Source of the DNA: Escherichia coli
GTDB lineage: Bacteria > Pseudomonadota > Gammaproteobacteria > Enterobacterales > Enterobacteriaceae
Assembly: GCF_017348835.2 (NCBI RefSeq)
Contig: NZ_CP072315.1
Strand: one strand, 5' to 3'
DNA length: 64,000 bases
Both the position numbers and the translations under genes were made by a program. Position 1 is the first letter of the stretch; each line of letters begins with the position of its first letter. The notes under the pieces were generated by a model. It worked only from the letters and a program-made list of their open reading frames with translations. It did not search any database and was not told the DNA's origin. Shown here in pieces: positions 9,240-9,460 of this stretch.

Positions 9240-9460
9240 TCGCTCGAGCATCGCCGCATCCGACGATGCCGAGACGACCAGGCCGCGCACGTCGAGCTGC
9301 AGCATCGCCATTGCCGACGATGGCACCAGGTCGCCGGCGGTGGCCACCGACCTCGAGCTCGCATCGCCACATCCGACGATGCGCGCCGGCGTCGACCATC
9401 GCCAGGTCTGACGATGGCGGCCGCCCTGCCCTGGATCTCGCATCGCCATTTCTGGCGATG
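9240..9460. promoter_or_regulatory. array of five related about-20-bp palindromic sites (consensus GCATCGCC-n4-6-GACGATG) upstream of the resolvase gene; candidate res or operator sites
   Basis: Sites read at about 9248, 9302, 9361, 9397 and 9439; the last is the perfect palindrome CATCGCCATTTCTGGCGATG. Confidence 0.45.

Follow-up and report, generated by a model that had tools for sequence, protein, structure and literature searches.

The five palindromic sites that lie upstream of the resolvase gene resG in the stretch of Escherichia coli DNA analyzed here (64,000 nucleotides, hereafter the window) are, as judged from sequence comparison, the traC-parA copy of a repeat module that is dispersed around IncP-1β-type plasmid backbones, and it is unlikely that the neighboring resolvase uses them as its recombination site. 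The reading we favor, to which we assign a probability of about 0.4, is that the array units act as strand-specific hairpins in single-stranded nucleic acid and not as duplex resolvase-binding sites, because substitutions in their stems lead more often to G·T than to A·C pairs on the transferred strand.

The five-site array

A repeat search identified one family of five copies (9238-9269, 9292-9323, 9351-9382, 9386-9417, and 9430-9461), within which are 22-bp sites with the consensus GCATCGCC-N6-GRCGATGC, starting at 9248, 9302, 9361, 9396, and 9440 (copy-to-copy spacings of 54, 59, 35, and 44). All five units, which we assign to the minus strand, have the same 8-6-8 geometry, and none is distinct except site 5 by its flanks. 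On the plus strand site 1 (9248-9269) reads GCATCGCC-gcatcc-GACGATGC, site 2 (9302-9323) GCATCGCC-attgcc-GACGATGG, site 3 (9361-9382) GCATCGCC-acatcc-GACGATGC, site 4 (9396-9417) CCATCGCC-aggtct-GACGATGG, and site 5 (9440-9461) GCATCGCC-atttct-GGCGATGA. Four of the five are asymmetric, since at arm position 7 of the plus strand C faces A, and site 5 is enclosed by a longer inverted repeat (GGATCTC...GAGATCC, 9433-9468). Each unit has a short conserved 5′ flank (CTCGA, CTGCA, GAGCTC, GTCGA, and GGATCTC), from which we conclude that all are in the same orientation.

Scanning both strands of the window for CATCGCC-N6-GRCGATG with at most one mismatch produced 13 strand-matches, which include the five sites on both strands, an isolated match at 326 in an aadA-type gene, and a one-mismatch occurrence at 27136. 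Shuffled sequences gave a chance expectation of 0.05 ± 0.26, and 13 was reached in none of 100 shuffles. With 0.05 matches expected by chance in the window, the five related palindromic sites that had been proposed in a sequence-only reading of this DNA are real. That reading was also right to call the gene at 9586 a serine recombinase (Pfam Resolvase, E = 3e-21; HTH_7, E = 2e-5) and to regard the array, with its five identical 8-6-8 units, as unlike a three-subsite Tn3 res. Its description of the last site as a perfect 20-bp palindrome needs correction, however, since the inverted repeat of site 5 is perfect over 8 bp and flanks a TTTC center that is not palindromic. Nor does the term iteron-like fit: the units are inverted repeats without a neighboring rep gene, whereas the IncP-1 oriV iterons (TrfA sites), likewise repeats in non-coding plasmid DNA, are non-palindromic direct repeats of 15-17 bp (TGACACTTGAGGGGC).

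A captured IncP-1β fragment

The left boundary of the fragment that carries the array is an IS26 terminal inverted repeat (TTTGCAACAGTGCC, 8993-9006), with the IS26 transposase ORF at 8232-8954 (annotated as IS26 in identical plasmid copies), and the match to the IncP-1β plasmid pADPe begins at 9007. The 3′ end of traC (9007-9100, plus strand) is truncated by IS26 and is 100% identical to the traC ends of pADPe, pDCB2, and pAAA83. The IncP-1β traC product is a primase, annotated as a zincin-like metallopeptidase-domain protein. A direct repeat and a terminator scan then defined, within 9141-9235 (plus strand), two hairpins with CCTCCCT loops and in addition an intrinsic terminator (9204-9235) that closes the traC transcription unit and is joined to the array via CTCGAG. 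Downstream of the array are the proximal upstream region of the resolvase gene (9462-9585, plus strand), which is conserved across IncP-1β lineages, resG itself (9586-10323, plus strand), encoding a ParA-type small serine resolvase of 245 residues, and a 74-residue ORF (WP_000743213; 10320-10544, plus strand) that is always found directly after resG.

Positions 9100-9572 match the traC-parA spacer of pDCB2, pJP4-type, and pAKD plasmids with 99.8-100% identity. An alignment of the window with pDCB2 and two other loci (L008 and L020) placed a recombination junction at 9556-9575. To its left the DNA is of the IncP-1β-1 type (99.8-100% identical to pDCB2, the match to which stops at 9572), to its right it matches the resG locus of loci with a 100%-identical ResG, which have other DNA directly upstream of the gene, and the crossover is within a shared block (TTTG.GTAT.CCCAA). 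The segment from 9007 to ~9570 comes from an IncP-1β plasmid, of which it comprises the traC 3′ end and the spacer between traC and parA; IS26 interrupts it on one side, and on the other it is fused to resG. The plasmid pAAA83 shows the same arrangement with traC intact: its five sites, its resolvase (WP_001446887), and its 74-residue ORF are those of the window. This comparison establishes that the module entered the window on a pAAA83-like IncP-1β fragment consisting of truncated traC, terminator, array, resG, and the 74-residue ORF. The captured fragment is cut by IS26 on the left and is followed by ISCR2 on the right. At ≥99% identity, the combination of truncated traC, array, and resG is found in more than 1,700 resistance plasmids that have been sequenced (from Klebsiella, E. 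coli, Salmonella, and others), and a correct reading would therefore avoid a widespread mis-annotation of the array as "the res site of resG." Where it now resides, in a chromosome or a plasmid, the array probably has no function and is a relic.

The repeat module in IncP-1β backbones and GIsul2-like elements

The modules are 100-220 bp long and each has two to five hairpin-forming units (GCATCGYC-N6-GRCGATGC). In pBP136, a plasmid devoid of accessory genes, there are 20 sites in five intergenic clusters (traM/kfrC, klcB/korC, oriV/trfA, upf30.5/upf31.0, and traC/parA), and the same five positions are filled in pYKBP039, pYKAM033, and a Xanthomonas translucens plasmid. In pAKD14 four positions are filled, and inserted transposon DNA occupies the one at oriV/trfA. 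Throughout five IncP-1β-like lineages the arrays are homologous, intergenic, composed of two to five sites, and of one polarity, with the four-site lineages pBP136, pYKAM033, and pC1-1 having no site 2. Cluster-to-cluster homology is 72-79% over 130-280 nt and includes the spacers. Three type I modules are each joined via CTCGAG to the terminator of traC, trfA, or kfrC, a junction of terminator, CTCGAG, and array that is found in pBP136 after trfA and kfrC also, and one pBP136 array abuts the outermost oriV iteron. We considered pYKBO007 as a counter-example for the traC-parA position, as its ParA is 88% identical to the β ParA and it has no motif, but its parA is 5′-truncated by an insertion; the other four arrays are also missing from this related backbone.

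Among ResG relatives in genomes (n = 80), adjacent palindrome clusters were found only at IncP-1β-type loci and at loci of ≥84% identity (GIsul2-like), and de novo palindrome and repeat searches of ten other ResG-relative loci revealed nothing comparable. The GIsul2-like elements have two homologous arrays each, with 1.2-3.2 kb of cargo between array and resolvase gene, whereas the window array ends 125 bp upstream of resG. (The name resG comes from GIsul2, the integration of which was unaffected by deletion of the gene, PMC9376610.) The entire 66.9-kb IncP-1α plasmid pB11 has no GCATCGYC palindrome, and the arrays are absent from IncP-1α and two other IncP-1 subgroups, and hence are not needed for conjugation or replication as such.

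It is conceivable, though decidedly unlikely in our estimation, that the arrays are selfish or neutral extragenic palindromes (REP/BIME-like or miniature-element-like) that spread as a cassette into "safe" intergenic spots near terminators, their folding and polarity reflecting mobilization or homogenization by an HUH-type enzyme or template switching. The lineage-specific distribution just described, the mutual homology of modules down to their spacers, their restriction to intergenic DNA at operon ends, and the lineage-dependent number of sites are all consistent with such an origin, as are loop polarities that flip between orthologs, which template switching would be expected to produce. 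However, the arms are kept across lineages whose TrfA proteins are 76% identical and in which spacers and inter-site DNA have diverged, which argues for purifying selection, and the five positions are kept in all IncP-1β-like lineages examined with the exception of pAKD14. There is also no evident cognate transposase. REP/BIME elements are likewise short, GC-rich, imperfect palindromes with strand polarity that are arrayed in intergenic DNA at operon 3′ ends, but the arrays here are plasmid-borne and only five, have far more uniform arms, and are not accompanied by an evident RAYT-type gene (none is in the gene tables of the plasmids examined). No chromosomal copies, a trait of REP/BIME, were seen among the matches listed for the collections scanned. 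A single-site scan of metagenomes may also speak against such spread, as the matches listed, on at least 120 contigs, were all isolated, with no clusters, and are probably due to chance. With a two-site pattern, viral contigs yielded nothing beyond the same fragment and a single coding repeat that is unrelated. If the arrays prove to be neutral palindromes, the finding would be an ordinary one.

In the full-text literature open to search, neither the repeats nor an IncP-1β res site is described. Thorsted et al. in 1998 reportedly noted a "family of repeated sequences" in R751, in the oriV-trfA and tra-trb regions, and proposed it as the basis of insertion hot spots. The subgroup and the two regions are the same, and these repeats are very probably the GCATCGYC arrays; no function, strand bias, or GIsul2-type link is known to have been described for them.

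Relationship of the array to ResG and its probable res

The traC-parA region is regarded in the literature as containing a hot spot for transposons and the putative resolution site of ParA (PMC4245530, PMC7728920), and the sequence-only reading had likewise raised a role in resolution or regulation. Our analyses uphold that the DNA upstream of the gene contains a real cis element with multiple sites; that it is a res or operator dedicated to the resolvase is not supported. In such a role, which we regard as unlikely, the array would supply accessory or regulatory sites at which ParA/ResG dimers bind the 22-bp palindromes and wrap a synaptic complex by a gene-proximal crossover site, and/or repress the gene. 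A resolvase gene does adjoin the array in the window, as it does in IncP-1β plasmids, and array and resolvase are found together in two different families, the IncP-1β plasmids and the GIsul2-like elements. The sites, at 22-26 bp, are also near the 25 bp of Tn3 res site III, and insertion of res-site hunters into the region is documented, with site 5 itself having been struck.

Several features are difficult to reconcile with this role. Tn3/γδ res is similar in that imperfect inverted repeats precede the gene for a resolvase of this superfamily, but it consists of three subsites (I-III) at unequal spacing, whereas the window array has five equal units of uniform 8-6-8 geometry, with no subsites of differing spacing and no distinct crossover site, and there are five arrays per replicon. 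A res would be expected in one copy per replicon, but pBP136, pYKBP039, pYKAM033, and the X. translucens plasmid have five same-orientation arrays each, and pAKD14 has four; five direct-orientation arrays, if all were functional res, would result in plasmid deletion and be lethal. In the GIsul2-like elements the cargo separates array from gene, loci with a 100%-identical ResG have other DNA immediately before the gene, and duplex binding leaves the strand asymmetry of G·T and A·C pairs (see below) unexplained. Relatives with the same helix would also be expected to share the motif. ResG is 76% identical to the IncP-1β ParA and, over residues 12-208, 76% identical to the RP4-type ParA of pB11, with a near-identical recognition helix (CSPSQVKRVW vs. 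YSAAQVKRIW/CSESQVKRVW), yet pB11 has a different motif between parC and parD, AATGCGC-type inverted repeats, in place of the palindromes. The α res between parC and parD is reported to have three ParA-binding repeats (Eberl et al., 1994).

The real ParA/ResG res and promoter most likely lie within the ~120 bp that separate the start codon from site 5 (9462-9585), based on the clustering of Tn402-type insertions there and a weak similarity to the DNA upstream of α parC. Tn402-type breakpoints cluster at 9450-9620 (9510, 9512, 9546/7, and 9583), most of them 3′ of site 5, a further point against the array as res, and none in sites 1-4. The segment has an inverted repeat, GGCCAA (9502-9507)...TTGGCC (9530-9535), and a -10-like TAGCAT (9541-9546), and the AGCAT direct repeat reported for pA22732-IMP (PMC4245530) corresponds to 9542-9546. 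The ParA multimer-resolution system of RP4/RK2 (parCBA) likewise has its site upstream of the gene, and that site is a target of the res-site hunters Tn5053/Tn402. In comparison with pB11, both the α DNA and the window have a block just upstream of the gene (GTATACCCAA) and a -10-like TAGNNT, and a GTATRCCCAA block is common to 9462-9585 and the pB11 DNA upstream of parC, although the overall similarity is weak; the five palindromes are distal to the stretch that resembles the α upstream DNA. From the junction sequences available, the loop of site 5 is a repeated transposon entry point: the breakpoint in NZ_MN386974 is at the equivalent of window position 9450, in this loop, and in pC1-1 IS1071 is joined to it.

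Proposed strand-specific folding of the array units

In five IncP-1β-like plasmids the ratios of G·T pairs on the transferred strand to those on its complement are 26:6, 18:3, 24:4, 22:5, and 28:7, and in the window array 6:0, although sites within and between clusters are paralogs and these raw counts are not independent. A comparison of orthologous sites in three lineages (with rows L090 and L003 left out of the alignment) identified 16 changes on the transferred strand from Watson-Crick to G·T vs. three of the A·C kind (binomial p = 0.004); for the arms alone the counts are 10:3 (p = 0.09). When folded as ssDNA, the minus strand of 9236-9475 is predicted to reach -84.2 kcal/mol (z = -6.1) and to form a single clean hairpin at each site, compared to -70.6 kcal/mol (z = -3.65) for the plus strand. 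Site 1, for example, forms a 9-bp stem with one G·T pair and a tetraloop on the minus strand. Only one double change among about 90 sites was clearly compensatory, the arms being almost invariant. Such near-invariance would be expected equally from a sequence-specific duplex-binding protein, and the two homologous modules of the GIsul2-like elements show no G·T/A·C strand bias; both observations speak against hairpins.

Mutation bias was considered as a source of the G·T excess and rejected, as fourfold-degenerate sites have no plasmid-wide C-to-T bias on the transferred strand, their skews flipping sign with gene orientation. We also considered the lagging-strand template as the folding strand. 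The layout of the pBP136 oriV (DnaA boxes, five iterons, and an AT-rich region) suggests that the favored strand is instead the leading-strand template, which makes that reading less likely than the transferred strand. The genes traC, trfA, and kfr use the favored strand as template, and in pBP136 this strand also carries the oriT repeat and the nick motif. The kfr/kor/kle and tra operons of RP4 have the transfer strand as their template (PMC7314908). By analogy with RP4, we infer that in IncP-1β plasmids the folding strand is the conjugatively transferred strand, which is the minus strand of the window.

The favored hairpin reading can be outlined as follows. Each unit on the transferred strand would fold into a 9-bp stem with a tetraloop, and evolution would tolerate G·T but not A·C pairs on that strand. 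The arrays might then be active when the plasmid strand is single-stranded, possibly through a factor that reads the stem sequence, for instance for priming or processing of the incoming strand, and as a by-product the intergenic array positions might become preferred entry points for IS1071 and Tn402/Tn501-type elements. Precedents for one-strand hairpins on conjugative elements are the ssi priming sites (IncQ, F, ColE) and the Frpo-type ssDNA promoters of leading regions (F, ColIb-P9), but the array units are much shorter, are repeated, have no -35/-10 in the stem, and are not confined to the leading region. No such single-strand element has as yet been found in RP4 (PMC7314908). It speaks against the hairpin reading that no IncP protein is known to need such hairpins.

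The arrays mark both of the IncP-1β positions that gather transposons, integrons, and catabolic islands. A more far-reaching proposal is that the GCATCGYC arrays are an uncharacterized class of IncP-1β cis element that acts as folded ssDNA of the transferred strand (in loading, priming, or processing) and that physically causes the oriV-trfA and traC-parA hot spots. We consider this possible but doubtful. Should the hairpins cause the hot spots, they would be the reason that IS1071 and Tn402/Tn501-type elements pile up resistance and catabolic genes there, and should they attract insertions or aid establishment of the strand, they would offer a testable handle on the placement of accessory genes in IncP-1 plasmids.

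Folding of one strand could alternatively take place in RNA. Hairpins in transcripts with the polarity of the transferred strand (the 3′ UTRs of traKLM/trb, or antisense into traC, trfA, and klcB) would then serve as stabilizers, roadblocks, or insulators. The G·U-tolerant strand is indeed the sense strand of traM and upf30.5, both of which end at modules, and for these two modules mRNA of the same polarity explains the bias equally well. Location of the modules at operon boundaries beside terminators, and GNRA-like tetraloops (GAAA, GGAA) in the type I modules, are also consistent with an RNA element. Nevertheless, we judge it very improbable: at three of the five modules, that of the window included, the favored strand is antisense to all annotated neighbors, no Rfam family was significant on the array, and in the terminator scan no unit is followed by a T-run (a U-tract in RNA), so none is an intrinsic terminator, the only one being that at 9204-9235, upstream of the array. 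The region 9000-9700 also has no promoter-like site on either strand, but this σ70 scan is uninformative, as not even resG is assigned a site.

Little probability is likewise left for operators of another plasmid or host duplex-binding protein, be it a global regulator, a nucleoid- or partition-like organizer, or a transcription roadblock. Invariant arms around free spacers resemble classic dimer operators, and the dispersal of the clusters resembles that of the KorA/KorB operators in IncP-1 plasmids. The sites do not match the known sequences of the KorA, KorB, or KorC operators, however, and in the gene lists of IncP-1β plasmids and GIsul2-like elements we noticed no common DNA-binding protein beyond the resolvase and a relaxase accessory protein. 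Several clusters are flanked by convergent 3′ ends, a setting that offers nothing to regulate, and operators, too, would leave the strand asymmetry unexplained.

The hairpins at 9141-9235, with their CCTCCCT loops, are a candidate anti-Shine-Dalgarno small RNA. The DNA upstream of the array has sub-threshold Rfam matches to anti-hemB, Atu_C7, ncS54, mmgR, ar14, and CcsR1, the best with 35.6 bits (E = 1.5e-6).

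Structure and origin of the array

Five related units with 22-bp cores starting at 9248, 9302, 9361, 9396, and 9440 lie upstream of resG (9586–10323, plus strand), an ORF whose product is a small serine recombinase carrying Resolvase and HTH_7 domains, much as the sequence-only reading had proposed for both units and gene. All five cores follow the consensus GCATCGCC-N6-GRCGATGC with small deviations at most, and arm position 7 has C opposite A in four of the five. The last site had been read as a full 20-bp palindrome and is actually a perfect inverted repeat of 8 bp centered on TTTC. 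Each unit has a conserved short 5′ flank, which gives the array polarity. The site pattern is expected to match 0.05 times per window; besides the array the only exact consensus match in the 64 kb is CATCGCCGTACACGACGATG (326–345, in an aadA-type adenylyltransferase gene, minus strand). Such a match is rare by chance, and we took it as coincidence because it stands alone and lies in coding sequence.

In this window the array sits between IS26 and ISCR2, probably as a passenger relic. An IS26 end (9006) is followed by the last 94 bp of IncP-1β traC (from 9007), the traC terminator (9204–9235), the array, ~120 bp, and the recombinase gene, and this IS26-bounded version occurs in >1,700 plasmid records. 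Residues 9100–9572 share 99.8–100% identity with the spacer between traC and parA in IncP-1β plasmids (e.g., pDCB2, pJP4-type, and the pAKD series); this identity ends at ~9572, beyond which the DNA matches the resG locus in two genomes with 100%-identical ResG. The recombination junction between the two DNA types is at 9556–9575, with the crossover inside a common TTTG.GTAT.CCCAA block. The recombinase is the ResG named in GIsul2 (PMC9376610) and has 76% identity to IncP-1β ParA, which carries an extra 68-residue N-terminus. The IncP-1β plasmid pAAA83 has the same five sites, recombinase protein, 74-aa ORF, and junction hybrid together with an intact traC, from which we conclude that the window fragment comes from a plasmid of that kind.

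Directly 3′ of traC in IncP-1β plasmids there is also a candidate small RNA (9141–9235, plus strand), consisting of two CCTCCCT-loop hairpins (direct repeat 9142–9161/9169–9188) and the intrinsic terminator, whose motif varies in other lineages. Its Rfam matches, all sub-threshold, were to CCUCCUCCC-motif/anti-Shine-Dalgarno sRNA families (anti-hemB, 35.6 bits, E 1.5e-6; also Atu_C7, ncS54, mmgR, ar14, and CcsR1).

Distribution of the arrays

Scanning the whole of pBP136, a complete IncP-1β plasmid without accessory genes, identified 20 sites in five intergenic clusters: traM/kfrC, klcB/korC, oriV/trfA, upf30.5/upf31.0, and traC/parA. The same five positions are filled in pYKAM033, in a plasmid from Xanthomonas translucens, and in pYKBP039, whose TrfA has no more than 76% identity, and four of the five in pAKD14, where transposon DNA has taken the oriV-trfA spot. 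All clusters have one orientation on the plasmid, and entire clusters, spacers included, can be aligned to each other. Three “type I” clusters (after traC, trfA, and kfrC) are joined to the operon's intrinsic terminator via CTCGAG, and two “type II” clusters have another internal order in common. No arrays were found in two other IncP-1 subgroups (pYKBO007 and pRHB23-C01_5) or in the IncP-1α plasmid pB11.

Two homologous clusters are also present in each of the GIsul2-like integrative elements, which encode RepA/RepC, a relaxase, TrbL, a ptaRNA1 toxin, KleE, and a ResG-like protein. One follows repC, and the other follows the toxin gene and is parted from kleE-resG by variable cargo. In four such loci (L095–L098; 8367–8600 and 9670–9999) the ptaRNA1-type toxin gene directly precedes the array and a kleE homologue the ResG-like gene, with variable cargo in between (a toxin-antitoxin pair or an ars operon), mirroring the IncP-1β insertion hot spot. 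In a Lysobacteraceae metagenome-assembled genome, a ResG homologue (77% identity) has on both sides long, CRISPR-like arrays of a repeat with a 61-bp period (25–1184 and 4949–5559).

The array and the resolvase

The sequence-only reading had suggested a multi-site resolution or regulatory region unlike the Tn3 res. The array indeed does not fit a Tn3-type res, and a multi-unit array upstream of a resolvase gene is real; however, several tests make it improbable that this is the res of ParA/ResG, and we consider resolvase accessory or regulatory sites unlikely as well. A functional res present in five direct copies would cause deletion of the plasmid, and every unit has one common geometry. Among characterized systems, RP4 ParA and its res come closest to the gene, and the array does not fit that res either; RP4-type ParA is the experimentally characterized IncP-1α resolvase type (PMC7314908; PMC7765201). 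Although the pB11 RP4-type ParA (76% identity to ResG) has an almost identical recognition helix, pB11 parC-parD DNA contains AATGCGC-type inverted repeats and zero GCATCGYC units. Between parC and parD of pB11 (18500–26960) is a Tn5053-like mer transposon with a TTAAA target duplication, a textbook case of a res-site hunter and a positional marker of the α res.

Breakpoints of Tn402-type and other insertions on the traC side of IncP-1β plasmids (window equivalents 9450, 9510, 9512, 9546/7, 9583, and 9621, and further inside parA) map to the stretch from site 5 to the start of the gene and to its 5′ part, and none to sites 1–4. The AGCAT duplication of pA22732-IMP (PMC4245530) corresponds to 9542–9546, a −10-like TAGCAT. 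The 120-bp stretch preceding the gene is conserved among β lineages; it contains an inverted repeat (GGCCAA...TTGGCC) and has a block in common with DNA upstream of α parC. We infer from these sequence features that the real res and promoter probably lie within 9462–9585. The traC-parA spacer has been said “most likely” to hold the resolution site (PMC4245530), and we found no experiment on such a site in the accessible literature. In pYKBO007 a 44-bp perfect palindrome, GTGCATAGAACTTCTGACCG-ttcc-CGGTCAGAAGTTCTATGCAC (~25558–25601), is directly upstream of a 5′-truncated parA and is followed by CTTCTGAAAACGAC, found also upstream of resG in another locus (L008).

Strand-specific pairing

A unit can fold into a hairpin with a tetraloop and a 9-bp stem, in which the outer spacer bases add a ninth pair to the eight of the arms. 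Non-Watson-Crick positions are mostly G·T on one strand, the one antisense to traC, trfA, and kfr (hereafter the favored strand), with the corresponding A·C mismatches on the opposite strand. G·T pairs on the favored strand versus its complement numbered 26 vs 6 in pBP136, 18 vs 3 in pAKD14, 24 vs 4 in pYKBP039, 22 vs 5 in pYKAM033, 28 vs 7 in the X. translucens plasmid, and 6 vs 0 in window 9240–9470. As paralogous sites are non-independent, we counted differences between orthologous sites in three lineages: 16 changes from Watson-Crick gave G·T on the favored strand vs 3 giving A·C (p = 0.004), and there were also three flips and a single compensatory double change; the arms alone gave 10:3 (p = 0.09). 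Fourfold-degenerate sites had no plasmid-wide bias able to give the G·T excess. Folded as ssDNA, the minus strand of 9236–9475 reached −84.2 kcal/mol (z = −6.1), each site forming one clean hairpin, and the plus strand −70.6 kcal/mol (z = −3.65), and per-site energies were consistent with these folds.

The favored strand would, by analogy, be the conjugatively transferred strand (minus in the window), since the strand transferred in RP4 serves as template for the kfr, kor, kle, and tra operons (PMC7314908) and in pBP136 the favored strand carries both the oriT repeat and the nick motif. In vegetative replication, the oriV layout suggests that it is the leading-strand rather than the lagging-strand template.

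As a sequence signature, the asymmetry argues for a function, or at minimum selection, in the single-stranded state, and against both simple duplex operators and hairpins formed by mRNAs of traC, trfA, and kfr. Arm sequences almost never covary, pointing to a sequence read by a factor or to homogenization. Another duplex-binding protein is quite improbable, as is an RNA-level role. The array resembles REP/BIME arrays in form and ssi/Frpo-type signals in strand dependence, with selfish REP-like repeats a rather improbable account; it fits neither terminators nor iterons, contrary to the iteron-like reading. Loop polarity is reversed between some orthologs, strand bias is absent in the GIsul2-like elements, and other IncP-1 subgroups manage without arrays, all of which caution against over-reading the asymmetry. 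Weighing it against these points and the rare covariation, we put at roughly 0.4 the probability that the array consists of strand-specific hairpins of the transferred strand. Among the loop reversals, the first site of the array has GGAAGC vs GTTTCC or GTTTTC with unchanged arms in three loci (L017, L020, and L098); intrastrand template switching in quasi-palindromes would yield such flips.

Relation to insertion hot spots

In their 1998 paper on the R751 sequence, Thorsted et al. reportedly mention “a family of repeated sequences” near oriV-trfA and in tra-trb as a possible basis of insertion hot spots. These are very probably the GCATCGYC family, which makes the sequence feature an old and widespread one. 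We know of no function characterized for the arrays, and two aspects may be previously undescribed: the strand-specific signature in pairing and the occurrence of the family in GIsul2-type elements as well. Two arrays coincide with classic IncP-1β insertion hot spots, whatever their native role; that the arrays form a novel class of hairpin element on the transferred strand and also explain these hot spots is doubtful. In pC1-1 (5212–5235) an IS1071 terminal repeat is joined exactly to the site 5 loop (GCATCGCCATTTC|GGGGTCTCCTCG...), and a second plasmid, NZ_MN386974, is broken at the same loop (window equivalent 9450).
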